Positions 11,010 to 58,915 of a stretch of 64,000 bases of DNA are shown here, piece after piece. Positions within the stretch are counted from its first letter, which is position 1. The number at the start of each line of letters is the position of its first letter. Made by a program: the position numbers and the translations under genes. This DNA comes from Clostridia bacterium. GTDB lineage: Bacteria; Bacillota; Clostridia; TANB77; CAG-508. Under the pieces are notes generated by a model. The model searched no databases. It saw only the letters and a program-made list of their open reading frames with translations, and was not told the origin of the DNA. Location of the stretch: assembly GCA_045650705.1 (NCBI GenBank), contig JAZRRK010000055.1, forward strand, positions 13,842-77,841, given 5' to 3'.

Positions 11010-11906
11010 TTATTTATCTTTTACAATTTCTTTTAAAGAACCTAAACTTGCAAGAGTATTTGTTGCTTCAAAAGGAATAAATACTTTATTTGCATCACCT
11101 TTAGCAATTTCTTGTAAAGCTTCTAATGATTTTAATTGAATTAATTTATCATCAGGATTTGCTTTCTTAATAGAATCGAAAATCATTTGGATTTCTTGAG
11201 CTTTTGCTACAGCAACTTCTCTTATAGCTTCAGCTTCACCGGCAGCTTTTCTAATTTGAGCTTCTTTATCAGCTTCTGCTTGTAATATAGCTGCTTCTTT
11301 TTGACCTTCTGCTATTGTAATAGCAGCTTGTTTTTCTCCTTCAGCTTGTAGGATTGCTGCTCTTTTATTTCTTTCAGCATTCATTTGTTTTTCCATTGCA
11401 TCACGAATATCTGATGGTGGATTAATATCTTTTATTTCAACTCTATTTACTTTACAACCCCATTTATCAGTTGCTTCATCTAATAATACTCTTAATTGAT
11501 TATTAATTAGATCTCTTGAACTGAAAGTAGAGTCTAAACTCATTTTACCAACTATATCACGGATTGTAGTAATTGCTAAGTATTCAATACCTCTTTTTAA
11601 AGATTGAATTTCGTATACTGCTTTTGCTGGATCAGTAATTTGATAAAATACTACAGTATCAATTGTGATTGTAACATTATCTTCTGTAATTACACCCTGT
11701 GGTGGGATATCCATTGTTTGTTCTTTTAAACTTACAACACTTCTAACCTTATCAACAAAAGGAATAATAATTGTAAGTCCTGCATCTGCGATTTTGTGGA
11801 ATTTACCAAGTCTTTCAATAATATAGACCTCGGCTTGCCTAACTATTTTAATTGATGAAATTGCTATAATTAAAACTATAACTAAAAATATAATTAAAAA
11901 TGGCAT
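11010..11906 (-). CDS. SPFH/Band-7 (stomatin-like) protein
   Basis: N-terminal TM, SPFH core (VQAEVYIIERLGKF), Ala/Glu-rich coiled tail; follows nfeD. Confidence 0.85.
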   Translation of the reverse strand: MPFLIIFLVIVLIIAISSIKIVRQAEVYIIERLGKFHKIADAGLTIIIPFVDKVRSVVSLKEQTMDIPPQGVITEDNVTITIDTVVFYQITDPAKAVYEIQSLKRGIEYLAITTIRDIVGKMSLDSTFSSRDLINNQLRVLLDEATDKWGCKVNRVEIKDINPPSDIRDAMEKQMNAERNKRAAILQAEGEKQAAITIAEGQKEAAILQAEADKEAQIRKAAGEAEAIREVAVAKAQEIQMIFDSIKKANPDDKLIQLKSLEALQEIAKGDANKVFIPFEATNTLASLGSLKEIVKDK

Positions 11907-11952
11907 AATTTACCTCCTAAAAAAATTTTATATTAAAAAAACTAATAACAAA

Positions 11953-12399
11953 TTAAATATTAACATTAACTTTTGAATCATTTTTGGATTTTACAATAAG
12001 TTTAACACCATCTATTTTCAAAATTTCAACATTTGTACCTGATACAATATTTTCTTCAGATTTAGCAGACCAAATTTCTCCATTTACTTTAACCTGCCCA
12101 ATACCATTAATAGAATCAATATCCTTAATAACAACTCCTGTTTTTCCAATGATACTGTAAGCATTAGTTACTATTGATTTATTGGTATCAACATATTTAG
12201 AAATAAGAGGTTTTGTTAAAAATATAAGTACAACTGAAGAGATAACAAACACAGCAGTTTGGATAAATAGATTATCGATAATAAAACTTGTAATCATTGC
12301 TAAAATACTGCCAATACCTAACCAAAAGATTAGAAATCCAGTAGTCATAATTTCAACAACAAAAAATATTCCAGCTGCAATCAACCATAAATACCACAT
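11953..12399 (-). CDS. NfeD-family membrane protein
   Basis: TM helices plus C-terminal OB-like domain (GQVKVNGEIWSAKS); operon partner of the SPFH gene. Confidence 0.8.
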   Translation of the reverse strand: MWYLWLIAAGIFFVVEIMTTGFLIFWLGIGSILAMITSFIIDNLFIQTAVFVISSVVLIFLTKPLISKYVDTNKSIVTNAYSIIGKTGVVIKDIDSINGIGQVKVNGEIWSAKSEENIVSGTNVEILKIDGVKLIVKSKNDSKVNVNI

Positions 12400-52596: not shown

Positions 52597-52951
52597 ATGG
52601 AGGTGCTTTTTTTGTTATTTTATTTAACAAGTTTTATAGAATTTTGTAAAACTGCTTTTTTTGTTTTAGGGTACATATCAAATAATAGCTTGTTTCCAGA
52701 ACCATTATCACCAGAAGAAGAGAAAGAATATTTGGAAAGATATATGAATGGTGATGAAGAAGCTAGAAACATACTAATAGAAAGAAACCTAAGATTAGTA
52801 GCACACATATGCAAAAAATATAATATACCAAATCTAGAATTAGATGATTTGATTTCAATAGGAACAATAGGATTGATAAAAGGAATAAACACATTTAATC
52901 TAGATAAGAATGTTAGACTGGCTACATATGCTTCAAGATGCATCGAAAATG
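52597..52951 (+). CDS. sigK: Sigma-K 5' segment (pro-sequence plus region 2; spoIVCB-like), truncated by the intervening element
   Basis: FFVLGYISNNSLFPEPLSPEEEKEYL, NLRLVAHICKKY, LATYASRCIEN. TTG 52612 behind GGAGGTG may be the true start. CATATAAT at 52576-52583 resembles a sigma-E/K -10. Confidence 0.9.
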
Positions 52952-53462
52952 CAACTATCACGTGTTGGAAAATCAAGTGGCGATTAGTAAGCTGTTTGAT
53001 AAATTAAAGGACAAGCTAGATACTGAAATAATAATTCATACTAGCCCTACATGGAAGATACCACGAATAAATGAACATAGTACACTTGGAGAACAAATAA
53101 AATATTATCGTAGACTTGCTAATATAAAACAAACTGATTTATGCCTTAAACTTGGTTGTGATAGAGGTGTTTTAGACCATCTTGAAAATAGAGATATGAA
53201 ACTAATAAATATTAACTTAATTAAAGATATTATAAAAGAATTAAATATTGAAGATAAAATTATTATAAATGATGATTATATTTCTTTTATTTTTGATAAT
53301 CCAAGTAAAGCAATAATTGATTTTAGAAAGAAAAATAATCTTAAAAGAAGTGATTTATCCAAAATGATGAAAATTGATATATCAGTAATTAAAAGATGGG
53401 AAAATGGAAAGTGTCAAATGACTAGAGCAAGTTATAATAAATTAAAAAAATGTATGAGTTAG
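52938..53462 (+). CDS. Double-HTH (XRE-like) protein; its only ATG lies in the sigK 5' segment, outside the element
   Basis: Two HTH units (LGEQIKYYRRLANIKQTDLCLKLG; IIDFRKKNNLKRSDLSKMMKIDISVIKRWENG). No internal ATG before the first HTH. Confidence 0.6.
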   Translation: MHRKCNYHVLENQVAISKLFDKLKDKLDTEIIIHTSPTWKIPRINEHSTLGEQIKYYRRLANIKQTDLCLKLGCDRGVLDHLENRDMKLININLIKDIIKELNIEDKIIINDDYISFIFDNPSKAIIDFRKKNNLKRSDLSKMMKIDISVIKRWENGKCQMTRASYNKLKKCMS

Positions 53463-53650
53463 TCGCTCGTACATTTTTCTTTATCTTTTAAATGCCCTAA
53501 TACAGAATTTAATAATTCTCTTTTAGATGCATCATTAATATTTAATTGTTTTATTTTTTCTATCAATAGGGTTGCATGAAAGTCTGCAACTCTATTTTCA
53601 AGTTCTTTTTTATCTTCTTCTAGTTCTGGAAGATTTACAATAACTTTCAT
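53459..53650 (-). CDS. Small acidic hypothetical protein (63 aa), last gene of the minus-strand module
   Basis: GGAGG SD; follows the FtsK-like gene. Confidence 0.5.
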   Translation of the reverse strand: MKVIVNLPELEEDKKELENRVADFHATLLIEKIKQLNINDASKRELLNSVLGHLKDKEKCTSD

Positions 53651-53696: not shown

Positions 53697-55070
53697 TTAA
53701 TGTTTGTTATTATTTAGGATTTTTTCATAATCATCAATCCAATAACATTGTGCAAGTGTCTTGTTAACATTTGAAATATATAATCCTCTAGCATTTTTAG
53801 GGATTTTTTCAGCTGCATCTTTATTATCTAGTATGATATTGCTTAATATTTCATCAGCTCTAAAACAAATACGATAACCTATATTAGTTCTAATTTGACC
53901 TGAAATTAAATCAGCTGAAGGACGTTGTGTTGAGAGTAATAAATGTATACCTACCATACGACCTAAACGAGCTATTTTTTCAATATTTCGTTCAATTTTT
54001 TCAAGTTGTTCTTTTTCTTCTTTGGATAAATGTTTTTTATCAATTGTTAATACTTCAGCAACTTCATCAAAAGCAAGTATAATATGTTTCATTTTATTAG
54101 TAGCTTTCTTATTATAATTATCAATATTATTAACACCAAATTTAATTAATTCTTGAACCCTTATATCATATTCTTCTATAAGGTTGTCTAATACCATAAG
54201 TAAATCATTTTTAGTGCTAACAATTTTACATTTATCATGCCAAATTTTTTCGTAGTCTATTGCATTTTTAAAATCTGCTATAATTACCTTATGTCCTAAT
54301 GCTAAAGCCTGTGCTAAAACTAATTTTACAGAGGTTGTCTTGCCTGAATTGCTTTCGCCACCATCTAAACCATGAGGAATTGTAGACATATTCCAAATTT
54401 CTTGTTCGCCAAATGCATCTACACCTAAAACTACTTTTAGTTCAACATCATCTTTTTGTAAATAATTATTGTTCCAAATTTTAGGTTTAGGATTACTTAA
54501 ATCTTCTTTTGTTAAGCATAGAAGAATTTTGTTATTTCCTAATTTTTTAATGCCTTTTACTATGTACCCATAAATTTCTATTCTGCTCATATTCTTTTCC
54601 CAATCAGCAATCATTGTTGAATTAGTGAAAAATTTATATATCATTGTATTTTTATCTTTAGGATTAATATAACTTGCTATAAATATGGCTGTTCCTCTAG
54701 CATAATTTACTATTCCTGCATTATATATTTTTTCACATATTTTGTTAGAATTAATAGGTATTGCTAGACCTATTACATATACAATATAAAATAGGATTGC
54801 TAGAATAACTGCTATTATGTTTGATGGTATATTTGTGCCTAACATATTATTAATTAGCATTAATATTTTGTTATCAGGTATTTCAACACTTAAATTATGA
54901 ATTATTAATAATACTATTCCTAATACTATTGTTCCAATGATTAAAGCTATTAACTTTAATTTATTATGATAAAATTGATTTACTGCTATCTCCAAAAATT
55001 GAGGTATAGTAATTTTTCCCTTTTTATATGCTCTATTATTTTTTATTGCCTTATTTAAATTATCTTTCAT
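53697..55070 (-). CDS. FtsK/SpoIIIE-family (TcpA/Orf21-like) membrane DNA translocase / coupling protein
   Basis: N-terminal TM helices, Walker A GESNSGKT, Walker B ILAFDEV, LLSTQRP. Confidence 0.85.
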   Translation of the reverse strand: MKDNLNKAIKNNRAYKKGKITIPQFLEIAVNQFYHNKLKLIALIIGTIVLGIVLLIIHNLSVEIPDNKILMLINNMLGTNIPSNIIAVILAILFYIVYVIGLAIPINSNKICEKIYNAGIVNYARGTAIFIASYINPKDKNTMIYKFFTNSTMIADWEKNMSRIEIYGYIVKGIKKLGNNKILLCLTKEDLSNPKPKIWNNNYLQKDDVELKVVLGVDAFGEQEIWNMSTIPHGLDGGESNSGKTTSVKLVLAQALALGHKVIIADFKNAIDYEKIWHDKCKIVSTKNDLLMVLDNLIEEYDIRVQELIKFGVNNIDNYNKKATNKMKHIILAFDEVAEVLTIDKKHLSKEEKEQLEKIERNIEKIARLGRMVGIHLLLSTQRPSADLISGQIRTNIGYRICFRADEILSNIILDNKDAAEKIPKNARGLYISNVNKTLAQCYWIDDYEKILNNNKH

Positions 55071-55084
55071 GATAATTCCTCCTT

Positions 55085-56128
55085 TTAATTTTTAGTTTCA
55101 ATAAATTCTATATTTTCCATGTCTTGCATGATATCTATATCTTTTGTATGTTTAATTTTAATTATTTTTAATATATTGCTATCTTTATCACGTTGAAATT
55201 CCCAAATATTATGAACTCTTCTTTCAAATGCAGAATAGATACTAGGTTCGTATACTTTTTCATAAGAATAAATTTTTGAGAAATCTAAATTACTGCATAT
55301 AAATATATATTTTGCTGTAATTAGCTTTCCTTGAAATCTTGCAGGGGCTTGAGTAACTGGATGCGACCCAATGTAAATATTTAATTCAGGTATTTCAATT
55401 TGACCAACATATTCATCTATTAATATACAGGAATGGTTTAAACTATCGTAACCATCAAAAAGAGCATTTTTATTTCTATAGTTATACATTCTAAACACTT
55501 TTTTAGCATCTTTCATTAAATTATAAACAAAAGTTGTTTTTCCTACATTTGTAGTTCCTGTAATAAATGTTACTACAACATCTCTGTACTCACTTGAATA
55601 TTTATCTACTAAATACATATAAGCTATATCATCTAGTTGTTTTTTCTTATGCCATAATTTTGGATTTTTTTCTATTATGTCTTTAACAGATAGTCCATGT
55701 TTTAAATCCTCTAAAATTTGTCTTTCGAGTGGATTATTTTCTTGCTGTTCAGTTTCAAGAATTTTGCCTTCCTCATAGAAACTATTATCTTGGACACTCT
55801 CTAATTTTTCTTTATTTTTATCATCAGTCCATTTACCTGATTTCTCACAATATGCTCTGTTCTCTAGTGAACTACCATAGGCTTTTTCAATATGTGCTGT
55901 AGGGAATAAGGTCTTAAGCCTATTGAAATATATTGGACTAGGGCTATATAGGTATAAATGCTTATGTAAAATATTATTTGCTTTAGTTTTTTCTAAATTA
56001 GATAAACAGAAATACTGAACAGAAGTTAATTGTTTTACTTTTTCAAGTATAACTTCATCAGTTAGTCCAAATTTATCTACTGAATTCAATTCTATATTCC
56101 ATTTTCTAGATTGACTATTAGTAGCCAT
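55085..56128 (-). CDS. HUH endonuclease plus SF3 helicase Rep-like protein (rolling-circle initiator / relaxase candidate)
   Basis: Motif I RKWNIELN, motif II HKHLYLY, motif III YCEKSG, Walker A GTTNVGKT, Walker B ILIDEY, motif C ICSN. Confidence 0.8.
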   Translation of the reverse strand: MATNSQSRKWNIELNSVDKFGLTDEVILEKVKQLTSVQYFCLSNLEKTKANNILHKHLYLYSPSPIYFNRLKTLFPTAHIEKAYGSSLENRAYCEKSGKWTDDKNKEKLESVQDNSFYEEGKILETEQQENNPLERQILEDLKHGLSVKDIIEKNPKLWHKKKQLDDIAYMYLVDKYSSEYRDVVVTFITGTTNVGKTTFVYNLMKDAKKVFRMYNYRNKNALFDGYDSLNHSCILIDEYVGQIEIPELNIYIGSHPVTQAPARFQGKLITAKYIFICSNLDFSKIYSYEKVYEPSIYSAFERRVHNIWEFQRDKDSNILKIIKIKHTKDIDIMQDMENIEFIETKN

Positions 56129-56156
56129 TTTAAAACCTCCTTCTACATTCTACATC

Positions 56157-56214
56157 GCCATAGGTAATACTAAGGCTATGGCTTTAGGTCGGGCTTGTGT
56201 CTGCGACACAGCCC
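56157..56214 (-). promoter_or_regulatory. Two GC-rich hairpins just upstream of rep (candidate nick site / oriT)
   Basis: GCCATAG-11 nt-CTATGGC (56157-56182) and GGGCTTGTGTC-TGC-GACACAGCCC (56191-56214). Confidence 0.4.
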
Positions 56215-56233: not shown

Positions 56234-56419
56234 TTAATTATTGTTAGCACTTGATAACTTTACTTTTGAATTGTTGCTATAAGTTAAGCGAATTAACTCA
56301 AGTTCAGCTTCATTTAGGAATACCAATTTTTCTACTTTATCAGTTATTTTAACTACGATACAGATGTATGGGTTACCATTTTTGCTAACACGTTCTTCAA
56401 GTTTTGCTGGTATATTCAT
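56234..56419 (-). CDS. Small hypothetical protein (61 aa), first gene of the minus-strand module
   Basis: Start MNIPAKLEERVSKNGNPYICIVVK with AAAGGAG SD. Confidence 0.5.
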   Translation of the reverse strand: MNIPAKLEERVSKNGNPYICIVVKITDKVEKLVFLNEAELELIRLTYSNNSKVKLSSANNN

Positions 56420-56635
56420 AACTATGTTCTCCTTTCTGTATTTTATTGGTAAGAGAATTGTATTTTTTAGATATAAATGATATAATCTATTCAACAAAAC
56501 TCTTATGTGCAAACTATTTATCGCGATAATTTCTGCTTGCATATTAATTGTATAATAAGTTTAGATGGTAAATATAGAAAGCTAAATTGGTATTTATTAA
56601 ATTTTTTTTGGTATTTGTTAAGAAAGGGTCAATAT

Positions 56636-57310
56636 ATGAAAGAAATTAAAAGAAAAGAAAAAATCCAAGAGATAATTGAAGAAGATAAAAAGAAGAAAGA
56701 AAATATATATAGCAAACAGCACGAAGTAATGGAAGTTGCTAGAAATCGTGTAAAAGATTTACGAAAAAGATTGGGATTAAATGCAAATAAATTTGTTGAG
56801 GGGATTGATGGTTTTAGTGATGAAACACTATATGCCATTGAAAAAGGAAATAGTGGTTTAACATTAGATAAAGCATTAAAAATATCTCAAAAATATGATG
56901 TTAGTTTAGATTATTTATTTGGTATTTCAAATTTTATGAATGAAAATGAAATATTAATAGACAAAGCATTTAAAATGGTATTTGACCCAACTATAATTAT
57001 AGATAAATATGATATAAAAGATGTAGGGACTTTTAAATTAGAATTAATGGTCTTAAATGTAAATGAATATTTAATGAAATTCTTATTTGATAGTTATAAA
57101 TTAGATGTTGATTTTGCTAATGATGAGCTTTCCGAATATGACTATAATTATAAAATAAATGAACTAAAAGATAATCTTTATGAAGCAATAAGAAATAATG
57201 GAAATTTAAGAATTCCACATGTCTTAATACCTTTTGATGAGGTTAATAATGATATTAATAAAATTTTAGATAAATATTATAAATTAAATAACCCTGATAA
57301 TAAGTTATAA
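56636..57310 (+). CDS. XRE-family HTH regulator with a C-terminal domain, divergent from the rep module
   Basis: Start MKEIKRKEK; HTH in VKDLRKRLGLNANKFVEGIDGFSDETLYAIEKGNSGLTLDKALKISQKY. Confidence 0.7.
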   Translation: MKEIKRKEKIQEIIEEDKKKKENIYSKQHEVMEVARNRVKDLRKRLGLNANKFVEGIDGFSDETLYAIEKGNSGLTLDKALKISQKYDVSLDYLFGISNFMNENEILIDKAFKMVFDPTIIIDKYDIKDVGTFKLELMVLNVNEYLMKFLFDSYKLDVDFANDELSEYDYNYKINELKDNLYEAIRNNGNLRIPHVLIPFDEVNNDINKILDKYYKLNNPDNKL

Positions 57311-57364: not shown

Positions 57365-58012
57365 ATGAAAATAACTAAATACCCTCAATCATGTTTATTG
57401 ATTGAAACAAACAACAAAAAAATATTAGTAGATGCAGGAGGATTGAAATATAAAGAAGAATATTTTGGTATATGGAAAAATGTTGATATTGTTTTATTAA
57501 CTCATAAGCATGGCGACCATGTAAATTATGATGTTTTAAAAAATATTAATGTACCTATTTATTCTACTATGGAAGTACAAAACGCTTACCCTGAACTAAA
57601 AATTAATATAATAAAAGAAAATGATAATATTTCTTTTGATAATATAAATATAGAAGTCGTTAAAGCAGTTCATGGATACAATCCAAATTTAAAAGATGGT
57701 AAAGAAGTTTTTGAAAACGTTGGTTATATCATAGATGATAATCATACAAGACTTTATATAACAAGCGATACTATTTGTTTTAATAATGATTATAAAGCTG
57801 ATATTGTTGCACTGCCTATTACAGCTCATGGACTTACAATGTCTAGTTATGAAGCTTCATTATTTGCAATAGATTTAGGTGCTAAATTGGTATTGCCTAT
57901 TCATATGGACAATGATGCATACCCAACTGATTTTGATTATATGAAAAAGAATTTTGATAAATTTAATATAAATTATAAAGTATTAGAAATTGAAGAAAGT
58001 TTGGAGGTGTAA
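57365..58012 (+). CDS. MBL-fold metallo-hydrolase
   Basis: HKHGDH motif, about 215 aa, AAGGAG SD. Confidence 0.75.
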   Translation: MKITKYPQSCLLIETNNKKILVDAGGLKYKEEYFGIWKNVDIVLLTHKHGDHVNYDVLKNINVPIYSTMEVQNAYPELKINIIKENDNISFDNINIEVVKAVHGYNPNLKDGKEVFENVGYIIDDNHTRLYITSDTICFNNDYKADIVALPITAHGLTMSSYEASLFAIDLGAKLVLPIHMDNDAYPTDFDYMKKNFDKFNINYKVLEIEESLEV

Positions 58013-58014
58013 AA

Positions 58015-58398
58015 ATGAAGGAGAATAAACTTACAATATTTATAAATAAACCTGTAGAAAAAGTATTTGAATATTCTTTAGAATCAGATAATGTTCCAAA
58101 ATGGATTACTTCAATTAAAGAAGAAATACCATCAGAGAGACCTGTAAAAGTTGGTACAAAATTAAAAAATATAGGTGTTAATAGTGATAATTGGAATTTT
58201 TATGAAGTAATTGCTTTTGAACAAGGTAAAACATTTACATTAAAGAGACTAAAAGGAGATTATTTTGTAAAATATACTTGTACTGAAAAAGATGGTGGAA
58301 CAGAATTTGAATATTTTGAATGGGCTGAAAATGAACTAGATGAATTAATGGAAATGTCAGCATTAGAATTATTAAAAGAATTAATTGAAAACGAATAG
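58015..58398 (+). CDS. SRPBCC (START/AHSA1/polyketide cyclase-like) small-ligand-binding fold protein
   Basis: 127 aa; typical N-terminus ([22 protein letters not shown]); GGAGGTG SD. Confidence 0.55.
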
Positions 58399-58412
58399 AA
58401 AGGATAAAAGAA

Positions 58413-58658
58413 ATGAGAGAATTAAAAATAAATGGTATATATAAACATTTTAAAGGAAACTATTATTTAGTTGTTGATATTGCTGGTCATTCAGAAACAA
58501 AAGAAAAATATGTAGTATATAGAAGATTATATGGAGATGGTAGCTTATGGATTAGACCAATGGATATGTTTTTAAGCGAAGTAGACCATGATAAGTACCC
58601 AAATGTAGAGCAAAAATACAGATTTGAATTACAAGATATAGAAAGTGTTGCAAAATAA
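58413..58658 (+). CDS. DUF1653-like protein, paralog 1
   Basis: [46 protein letters not shown]. Confidence 0.65.
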
Positions 58659-58678
58659 GAATAATAGGAGGTATAAAA

Positions 58679-58912
58679 ATGAGAGAATTAAAAATTAAAG
58701 GTGTATATAAACACTATAAGGGAGATTTATATATTGTAGAAGATATAATTTATCATAGTGAAACTTGCGAAAAGATGGTAGCATATAGAGCTTTATATGG
58801 TGATAATAAATTATGGTGTAGACCTTATGAAATGTTTTTAGATGAAGTAAATAAAAATGGTCAAAAATATAGATTTGAATTACAAGAAATTAAGAGTGTA
58901 CAGGAGGTTTAA
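58679..58912 (+). CDS. DUF1653-like protein, paralog 2
   Basis: GVYKHYKGDLYIVEDIIYHSETCEKMVAYRALYGDNKLWCRPYEMF. Confidence 0.65.
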   Translation: MRELKIKGVYKHYKGDLYIVEDIIYHSETCEKMVAYRALYGDNKLWCRPYEMFLDEVNKNGQKYRFELQEIKSVQEV

Positions 58913-58915
58913 AAC

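Follow-up and report, generated by a model that had tools for sequence, protein, structure and literature searches.

What kind of element has divided the sporulation gene sigK in a gut bacterium, and is it still equipped to leave and travel? Skin elements, as inserts in sigK are called, are the textbook case of domesticated prophage remnants. We addressed the question with a stretch of 64,000 nucleotides from a Clostridia bacterium of the CAG-508 group (GenBank assembly GCA_045650705.1, contig JAZRRK010000055.1, positions 13,842 to 77,841 of the forward strand), referred to below as the window, in which sigK is split by an insert of 8.1 kb. An earlier note, made from the letters of the same DNA, had read the backbone of this insert as that of an integrative mobilizable element (IME) rather than a prophage, with a Rep-like replication initiator and an FtsK/TcpA-like translocase. 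In our judgement the insert is probably just that, an IME that serves as a skin. The family to which we assign it is described from two angles, as the pCRESS2 integrated rolling-circle plasmids and as IMEs that combine a relaxase of the rolling-circle replication (RCR) type with TcpA. In contrast to the phage-origin view, at least one widespread skin lineage of gut Clostridia would then be of plasmid or IME type, with an intact virus-like Rep and origin and a conjugation-type ATPase.

An 8.1-kb insert interrupts sigK

The features that delimit the insert are the following.

52597..52951, plus strand: sigK 5' fragment, codons 1-118, with region 2 (Pfam Sigma70_r2) and the attL core at 52947-52951; from the junction read and the empty site in contig L112
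52952..61092: the insert, 8,141 bp
59390..61093, plus strand: large serine recombinase, 567 aa, SpoIVCA-like, at the right edge (Pfam Resolvase, Recombinase and Zn_ribbon_recom; PHROG integrase, 1e-97)
61088..61448, plus strand: attR core AAATG (61088-61092) and sigK 3' fragment with region 4; from the junction read and the joined protein

An AAATG core stands at both junctions. The 5' part of sigK ends with TGC ATC GAA AAT G at 52951, and the 3' part restarts at 61093. This position of the break is defined because L112, a metagenomic contig of a related organism (a congener), shows the empty site: its sigK is uninterrupted and exactly these 8,141 bp are absent, in DNA that is 85-92% identical to the window and shares the gene order mraY-ftsW-murG-tspO-sigK. 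When the two halves of sigK were joined in silico, they gave a 236-aa protein that passes the SigK equivalog TIGR02846 (322 bits; cut-off 298.65). The locus thus has the marks of a skin element, namely an interrupted sigK, a SpoIVCA-like recombinase at the edge and a reading frame restored by precise joining. It also has an integration and excision module of its own with flanking attachment sites, as seen from the large serine recombinase, the AAATG cores and the empty site in L112. The right junction runs through the stop codon of the recombinase, TGA (61091-61093), which is made up of the core TG and the first base of the sigK 3' fragment.

At the SigK N-terminus (52597-52700) a hydrophobic stretch of about 30 residues precedes the conserved FPEPLS. 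Since the equivalog alignment covers all but the first 14 of these residues, the organism may combine a pro-sequence with a skin, unlike C. difficile.

Rep resembles the initiators of CRESS viruses

On the minus strand, the segment from 56419 to 53459 holds four open reading frames (ORFs) in the order that the earlier note had given.

56234..56419, minus strand: 61-aa protein, encoded first in the rep operon; homologues in sister skins, in locus L002 and in the branch with a Tn916-type integrase
55085..56128, minus strand: Rep, 347 aa, HUH endonuclease with superfamily 3 (SF3) helicase, of the type found in CRESS viruses (DNA viruses with a circular, single-stranded genome that encodes a Rep) and pCRESS plasmids (Pfam, alignment, profile, AlphaFold)
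53697..55070, minus strand: TcpA-like ATPase, 457 aa, FtsK/SpoIIIE superfamily (Pfam FtsK_SpoIIIE; PDB 6o1w-6o1z)
53459..53650, minus strand: 63-aa protein with a GGAGG ribosome-binding site, candidate recombination directionality factor

All the HUH and SF3 motifs that had been quoted for Rep are present. In the nuclease domain, motif I (SRKWNIELN), the HUH pair H55-K-H57, and Y93 with K96 in YCEKSGK are intact; in the helicase domain so are Walker A (G191...G196-K197-T198), Walker B (ILIDEY, with E239), motif C (S279-N280) and the arginine finger (R303-R304). Across a family alignment of 25 sequences, the window Rep and 24 homologues, the catalytic positions are invariant or nearly so, and all the quoted motifs but one fall on such columns. 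At Walker B the family consensus is FEEF (Glu-Glu), versus IDEY (Asp-Glu) in the window Rep. The protein matches Pfam RNA_helicase (SF3) with 30.4 bits (cut-off 21.5), and the profile of its family matches the full-length Rep of porcine circovirus 2 (PCV2; 7lar, E 1.6e-17). An AlphaFold model (pLDDT 80.7) agrees, as its top structural matches are CRESS-virus Reps: the redondovirus Rep over 293 columns, the nuclease domains of circovirus and nanovirus Reps, and the ATPase domain of PCV2. We regard Rep as a putative RCR initiator and relaxase.

Relatives of Rep number 621 in the database. Species-representative genomes, mostly metagenome-assembled ones of gut Clostridia and Bacilli, gave 176 hits; the best match among species-representative contigs is 88% identical. 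Within the family the window Rep belongs to a divergent branch, with 33-39% identity to most other members.

This distribution bears on the idea that the insert is a phage relic, left by a prophage, an inovirus (filamentous phage) or a phage satellite. Skins are usually called prophage-like, FtsK-like genes occur in some phages, and Reps 25-30% identical to that of the window lie next to Zot in inoviruses, so that the Rep family is common to Gram-positive filamentous phages and to integrated plasmids or IMEs. These Zot-linked Reps, however, are the most distant group and come without the ATPase, and viral contigs yielded only 15 Rep relatives among 2.9 million, against the 176 in species-representative genomes. 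Rep matched no PHROG family. Searches with Pfam, PHROG and NCBIfam found no phage structural gene in the element: 12 of its 12 ORFs were free of any match to capsid, terminase, tail, lysis, coat or Zot proteins. A phage origin is very improbable on these grounds, and the view of the backbone as IME-like and not prophage-like, with the intact origin and the exchange of modules described below, holds. The inoviruses concerned, L083 and L084 (bajarodino viruses 13 and 74, from rodent faeces) and L099, L101 and L103 (from IMG/VR), are circular and 5-10 kb long.

A circovirus-type origin is predicted beside rep

Between the 61-aa gene and rep lie three features that together suggest a replication origin.

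56191..56214, minus strand: GC-rich hairpin upstream of the origin hairpin, GGGCTGTGTC...GACACAAGCCC, with an equivalent in L001 and L002
56157..56182, minus strand: origin hairpin, stem GCCATAG/CTATGGC, 12-nt loop CCTTAGTATTAC (read, and found by comparative stem search)
56142..56155, minus strand: two tandem iterons, ATGTAGA ATGTAGA, directly 3' of the origin hairpin, candidate Rep-binding repeats

Read along the minus strand from the 61-aa gene to rep, the order is GC-rich hairpin, origin hairpin, iterons, ribosome-binding site and rep ATG. The loop of the origin hairpin contains the nonanucleotide TAGTATTAC at 56164-56172, 44 nt upstream of the ATG. Such a nonanucleotide in a hairpin loop with flanking short repeats is, we take it, the circovirus and nanovirus type of origin. 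By itself the nonamer is not rare, with 2 occurrences in the window versus 1.0 expected, so the weight is carried by comparative evidence. In 86 of the 88 loci that encode a Rep relative, a hairpin next to rep has AGTATTAC in its loop and a perfect stem of 7-14 bp. These stems were found by an anchored search for perfect stems around AGTATTAC, in which a perfect stem of at least 7 bp at the roughly 18 tested offsets has a chance of about 0.001 per locus. Moreover, the stem varies by paired changes: it reads GCCGTAG/CTACGGC in L001, and GCCCTTT/AAAGGGC in L108 even though the Rep of L108 is 95% identical, and paired changes also occur in L028, L071 and L082; the loci compared further include the stems CCATGCCCTAAG, TTTCCGTAGAG and CACTCTGG. 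A MAFFT alignment of the hairpins is out of structural register (loop lengths vary), and covariation counts were not drawn from it. The iterons have a counterpart, (A)TGTAGC(A) in two to three copies, at the same position in nearly all related loci, and the 105-nt intergenic region folds far better than its shuffles (z = -5.4).

The conserved, co-varying hairpin and its repeats thus indicate that Rep has its nick site and its probable binding repeats, both under constraint. By this comparison the rep gene is predicted to have an intact cognate origin of circovirus type. With such a conserved origin now defined for a bacterial Rep family, nicking and replication assays become straightforward.

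In the branch that has an alternative ATPase and a Tn916-type integrase (L010, L015, L020, L056, L089 and relatives) the origin hairpin stands in inverted orientation to rep, about 146-160 nt upstream of it, and the iterons lie beyond the hairpin as seen from rep.

The ATPase is closest to conjugative coupling proteins

The earlier note had called the protein encoded downstream of rep an FtsK/TcpA-like translocase, and the searches bear this out. The ATPase matches Pfam FtsK_SpoIIIE (51.8 bits, 9e-14). Its closest solved relatives, PDB 6o1w-6o1z, described as 'DNA translocase coupling protein', score 116 bits over residues 134-453, versus 62 bits for the FtsK motor 2ius. These are structures of TcpA, the coupling protein of pCW3 conjugation. 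The best plasmid matches (32% identity, E 1e-33) are FtsK/SpoIIIE genes between tcpM and tcpC/tcpD/tcpE on Tcp plasmids of C. perfringens, where they occupy the tcpA position. Towards its N-terminus the protein has two hydrophobic segments, at about aa 38-60 and 83-105. Its Walker A reads GESNSGKT and its Walker B ILAFDE, and ARLGRMVGIHLLLSTQRPS is a RAAG-like motif; no FtsK gamma domain was detected with Pfam or in the sequence. By its domain, motifs and membrane segments, and with no gamma domain, it is predicted to be a TcpA-like coupling protein.

The pairing with rep is constant. All 76 loci whose length allows a judgement have, next after rep and in its orientation, the gene for an ATPase of the FtsK/TcpA family, with two ATPase sub-families alternating among the loci. 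The integration genes vary: 40 of 80 loci have a tyrosine integrase 1.5-2.1 kb downstream, and 22 of 80 a serine recombinase within 8 kb. The earlier note had asked for a survey of the same module at sites other than sigK, and it does occur there, in small integrated elements with several integrase types. Examples are rep-ATPase-DUF3173-integrase adjoining guaA (L091, L092), rep-ATPase followed by Tn916 Xis and Int (L089), and, in Anaerotruncus, a serine-recombinase element of 7 kb that occupies two different sites (L087, L088). Streptococcal IMEs with RCR-type relaxases and TcpA (PMC5357655, PMC5704250) and pCRESS integrated plasmids (PMC6668415) are described with the same compact arrangement.

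A weak match of the ATPase to NCBIfam plasmid TraB (5e-06) raises the prospect of a self-transmissible element like the actinomycete integrative and conjugative elements (AICEs), in which an FtsK-like hexamer pumps double-stranded DNA with no need of a type IV secretion system. An integrase, an RCR-type Rep and an FtsK-like Tra make up the AICE gene set, and this counts in favour of that explanation. The TraB match is short, however (53 residues), the closest characterised relative of the ATPase is TcpA, which works with a full Tcp apparatus, and the hosts are unicellular or filamentous Firmicutes, not mycelial actinomycetes. We give an AICE-type element very little credence.

Sister skins exchange the mobilization module

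Several other contigs carry a related skin in sigK. The nearest, L108, has a Rep 95% and an ATPase 92% identical to those of the window. In L003-L006 Rep is 86-88% and the recombinase 93-94% identical, the ATPase belongs to the other sub-family and the cargo differs. In L001 Rep is 51%, the ATPase 79% and the recombinase 79% identical.

Two further sister skins hold neither Rep nor TcpA. L109 (ENA ERZ28563592 scaffold_36, 1-12059) has a recombinase 90% identical to that of the window and keeps the gene with two helix-turn-helix (HTH) domains and the 63-aa gene; in L110 (1-12059) the recombinase is 79% identical. Both carry a VirD4-type coupling protein (TrwB_AAD_bind 76.5 bits, TraG-D_C 55.2 bits) and a relaxase of the MobC family, whose Replic_Relax match reaches 32.3 bits in L110, above the cut-off of 25.3; in L109 this match is weak. 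MobC, VirD4 and a serine integrase form IME class 8 (PMC5357655), the same combination as in L109 and L110. That two unrelated pairs of relaxase and coupling protein occupy one slot of one scaffold argues that the conserved job of the slot is conjugative mobilization.

The sister skins also differ in other contents. An extra tyrosine integrase likewise stands in place of Rep and TcpA in L109 and L110, and their cargo consists of large repeat proteins. As cargo, L001 (2650-8942) carries a restriction enzyme of SacI type together with a C5 methylase, besides an SLFN/AlbA_2 protein, a MazE antitoxin and one more sigma factor, and L004 (6745-8664) an IS200/IS605-type TnpA and membrane proteins.

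The element genes are constrained and appear to move between hosts

Ratios of nonsynonymous to synonymous substitution (dN/dS) are 0.11-0.13 for Rep (against L003-L006), 0.21 for the ATPase (against L001), 0.09 for the recombinase (against L003, L004 and L006), 0.10-0.26 for the 61-aa gene (against L003-L006) and 0.38-0.53 for the 63-aa gene (against L001 and L003-L006); three comparisons of the two-HTH gene were out of register and were left out. Rep and the ATPase are under purifying selection.

The divergence of the element differs from that of its site. For element genes dS is 0.4-0.6, versus 1.0-1.7 for the flanking halves of sigK, and SigK is only 63-70% identical in hosts whose recombinases are 93-94% identical. 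Together with the empty site in L112, the low dS points to horizontal movement and not to an anciently fixed, domesticated insert. Judged by these comparisons, the element appears to move between gut Clostridia hosts, recently and repeatedly.

These data bear on the possibility of a domesticated developmental switch, fixed and immobile, kept for the timing of sigK, with Rep and the ATPase as relics or co-opted, for example to amplify the mother-cell circle. That is the classical view of skins, and as in other skins the recombinase lies at the margin, adjoining the sigK 3' fragment (10.1101/2022.02.25.481979); one relative, L002, is decayed. In contrast, a congener has an uninterrupted sigK in the same synteny, the element genes are far less diverged than the sigK that flanks them, cargo and modules are mosaic, and Rep, ATPase and origin are all conserved under constraint. 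We find a fixed switch quite improbable. The earlier note had itself spoken of a domesticated IME; with an element that looks recently and repeatedly transferred and is absent from L112, that part of it does not hold.

Mobilizable element or integrated plasmid

Several points weigh against reading the insert as an IME with a working Rep and origin. Taken alone, Rep scores 23.6 bits with Pfam Viral_Rep, just under the cut-off of 26. The single-sequence minimum free energy fold pairs the left arm of the origin stem elsewhere, and for this reason the origin hairpin rests on the comparative evidence. In L002 (ENA ERZ27257345 k141_4588888, 2790-7219; Rep 79% identical) the rep and FtsK-like genes are frameshifted, which could be assembly error; the recombinase end lies beyond the contig. 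Relaxases of the PF02407-type Rep class are called putative in IME reviews (PMC5704250), to Kazlauskas et al. the same ATPase is a 'DNA segregation ATPase' belonging to integrated plasmids (PMC6668415), and no helper conjugative element lies within the 64-kb window. In keeping with an IME, none of the 12 element ORFs matches mating-pore genes, whether VirB4/TcpF, TcpC/D/E/H or others (Pfam, NCBIfam).

Inactivating lesions in homologous copies, which the earlier note had named as evidence that would count against it, were found in L002 only; the other copies are intact. The two-HTH edge of L002 abuts cotJC, truncated after about 59 codons and next to cotJB, so that L002 appears to be a decayed element that interrupts another sporulation gene, and a cotJC-interrupting element has precedent in a survey of skins (10.1101/2022.02.25.481979).

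The segregation reading, the unproven relaxase function of PF02407 Reps and the want of a helper in the window would all suit an integrated rolling-circle plasmid with no conjugative mobilization, whose ATPase segregates or resolves DNA and which spreads by transformation or transduction; the pCRESS paper speaks of DNA segregation ATPases and integrated plasmids (PMC6668415). Yet the ATPase resembles TcpA almost twice as strongly as it resembles FtsK motors and has a TcpA-like membrane anchor and no gamma domain, and the sister skins replace the Rep-ATPase pair with VirD4 and a MobC relaxase, which have no segregation role. The swap is thus an argument from comparison for a coupling role of the FtsK-like ATPase, whose function is disputed. 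A purely plasmid nature is unlikely in our view, though it has to be reckoned with, and we favour the IME.

Remaining genes of the element

From left to right the element carries the two-HTH gene; the minus-strand group of 63-aa gene, ATPase, rep, origin and 61-aa gene; a divergent cI-type regulator; five cargo genes; and the recombinase.

52938..53462, plus strand: HTH_L, with two Cro/C1-type HTH domains (Pfam HTH_3), at the left edge
53446..53478: hairpin terminator between the convergent HTH_L and 63-aa genes, a 14-pair stem followed by a T run
56636..57310, plus strand: cI/Xre-type HTH regulator, divergent from the rep operon (Pfam HTH_3, PHROG transcriptional repressor families)
57365..59290, plus strand: cargo segment of five genes, replaced by other cargo in L001, L004 and L109
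57365-58012, plus strand: cargo, metallo-beta-lactamase (MBL)-fold hydrolase
58015-58398, plus strand: cargo, SRPBCC/Polyketide_cyc2 protein
58413-58658 and 58679-58912, plus strand: cargo, two tandem DUF1653 paralogues (81 and 77 aa)
58916-59290, plus strand: cargo, 124-aa protein, followed by a terminator at 59289-59308

HTH_L probably starts at the GTG at 52962. It is 59-80% identical in L001, L003-L006, L108 and L109 and every sister skin keeps it together with the recombinase and the 63-aa gene. In the circle formed in silico the recombinase ORF continues in frame into HTH_L, giving 747 codons in the window. The same in-frame run is seen in 4 of the 4 elements with both ends (window, L001, L004, L109); as only four codons lie between the junction and the first possible GTG, its chance is about 1 in 4.

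The 63-aa protein matched no family in Pfam, NCBIfam or PHROG and is 68-76% identical in the sister skins, including L109, where Rep and TcpA are missing. Its position 3' of the ATPase is the slot taken by Xis or DUF3173 genes in L089 and L091. Because the gene stays with the recombinase when the mobilization module is swapped, it belongs to the recombination module, and we infer a candidate directionality factor. No family match was obtained for the 61-aa protein. The cI/Xre-type regulator, 39% identical in L004, is a candidate repressor of the element by its domain.

Two palindromes are candidate operators: TTATCGCGATAA at 56518-56529, between the cI-type gene and the 61-aa gene, and GTGATA-N12-TATCAC at 59342-59365, just 5' of the recombinase gene. 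Rfam gave no match in the whole window, PADLOC gave only generic HTH and FtsK-domain matches and none for the cargo genes, and a scan for sigma-70 promoters did no better than on shuffles.

A model for excision and transfer

The anatomy of the element, its co-varying origin, the purifying selection, the mosaic exchange of modules and the horizontal distribution are established computationally. Beyond them we infer that Rep nicks and replicates the circle, that the ATPase couples it to a helper pore and that excision is timed by sporulation. In such a cycle the large serine recombinase would recombine attL and attR through their AAATG cores, the 63-aa protein probably serving it as directionality factor, to yield an intact sigK and a free circle. 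Rep would bind the ATGTAGA iterons on the circle and nick the TAGTATTAC loop through Tyr93, the SF3 helicase would unwind the DNA, and rolling-circle replication would release single-stranded DNA. If a conjugative element of Tcp or Tn916 type shares the cell, the membrane-anchored TcpA-like ATPase could then couple the strand bound by Rep to that element's mating pore. Once in the recipient, this strand would be closed and copied, and the recombinase would insert the copy into sigK. The divergent cI-type repressor probably silences the operon of 61-aa gene, origin, rep, tcpA and 63-aa gene.

What emerges from the comparisons is one scaffold that targets sigK, with interchangeable mobilization modules, in a lineage that appears to be spreading between hosts. 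It raises the question whether the element uses its sporulation excision to escape. A bolder proposal is that a family of elements in sporulation genes (sigK; cotJC in L002) consists of active IMEs: development would trigger their excision in the mother cell, and amplification by rolling circle and escape by conjugation would be coupled to it. We regard this as speculative and rather doubtful; if true, it would make sporulation a signal for horizontal transfer, and sigK a shared landing pad for elements that exchange their relaxase and coupling-protein modules.

Comparison with known systems

The analysis joins two literatures, on pCRESS integrated plasmids and on Firmicute IMEs. pCRESS elements are integrated plasmids, of which pCRESS1-3, -5 and -8 share FtsK-like ATPases (PMC6668415). 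With pCRESS2 of that study the window element has in common an HUH and SF3 Rep with Asn in motif C and H-x-H instead of HUQ, an adjoining FtsK-like ATPase, the lack of viral structural genes and site-specific integration in Clostridia. Taxa and protein lengths agree with those of pCRESS2 as well, examples being Ruminococcus CAG:108 (325-aa Rep, 424-aa FtsK) and Flavonifractor. The Glu-Glu of Walker B, a pCRESS2 signature, agrees with the family consensus, versus Asp-Glu in the window Rep; motifs and taxa, rather than a phylogeny that includes reference sequences, underlie the assignment to pCRESS2. The elements differ in that pCRESS2 uses tyrosine integrases targeting tRNA genes or rpsI, in contrast to the large serine recombinase and sigK here. 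We found no description of the TAGTATTAC origin or of sigK in PMC6668415 or its supplements, and in open-access text no paper that describes this origin for pCRESS2 or links skins to IMEs or pCRESS plasmids.

Streptococcal IMEs combine relaxases of RCR type (Rel_PF02407, Rel_PHA00330, Rel_PF01719-PF00910) with TcpA (PMC5357655, PMC5704250). Like the window element, they hold a compact module of relaxase and TcpA near excisionase and integrase genes, have no mating-pore genes and exchange their relaxase and coupling genes. The gene order in the window, rep then ATPase, is unlike theirs, and in streptococci RCR-type modules travel with tyrosine integrases, whereas serine integrases go with MobC and VirD4 (PMC5357655). 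The architecture proposed in the earlier note is borne out in its pairing of an RCR-type Rep with TcpA; the combination with a serine recombinase is a variant. Transfer is a prediction for the RCR-relaxase and TcpA class in both settings.

TcpA of pCW3 is, like the window protein, an FtsK/SpoIIIE-family ATPase with N-terminal membrane segments, but the two are only about 32% identical over the ATPase domain. The partners of TcpA in pCW3 are the MobM-family relaxase TcpM and a complete Tcp apparatus, whose genes adjoin its own, whereas the partner in the window is an HUH Rep, with no such apparatus.

Circoviruses and nanoviruses share with the element the Rep fold and motifs and, as we understand their origins, a TAGTATTAC hairpin loop immediately upstream of rep, on the rep strand, along with short tandem repeats 3' of the stem. 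Unlike them, the window element is bacterial, integrated, about four times larger and devoid of a capsid gene, and has His-x-His where circoviruses have HUQ.

Finally, the skins of B. subtilis, C. difficile, C. tetani and the C. perfringens phage phiS63 likewise cut sigK in region 2/3 and carry a SpoIVCA-like serine recombinase beside the sigK 3' fragment, and precise joining restores the gene. In a survey of 15 skins only the recombinase was shared and a (pro)phage origin was inferred (10.1101/2022.02.25.481979). Those skins are prophages or prophage-like, of 14.6-57 kb, the C. tetani insert being a 57-kb myovirus-like prophage; the window element, in contrast, is of plasmid or IME type, with a predicted origin and coupling ATPase. 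A non-viral intervening element has a precedent in gin, which lies in gerE, is not a prophage and for which conjugative spread has been suggested (PMC5595907).

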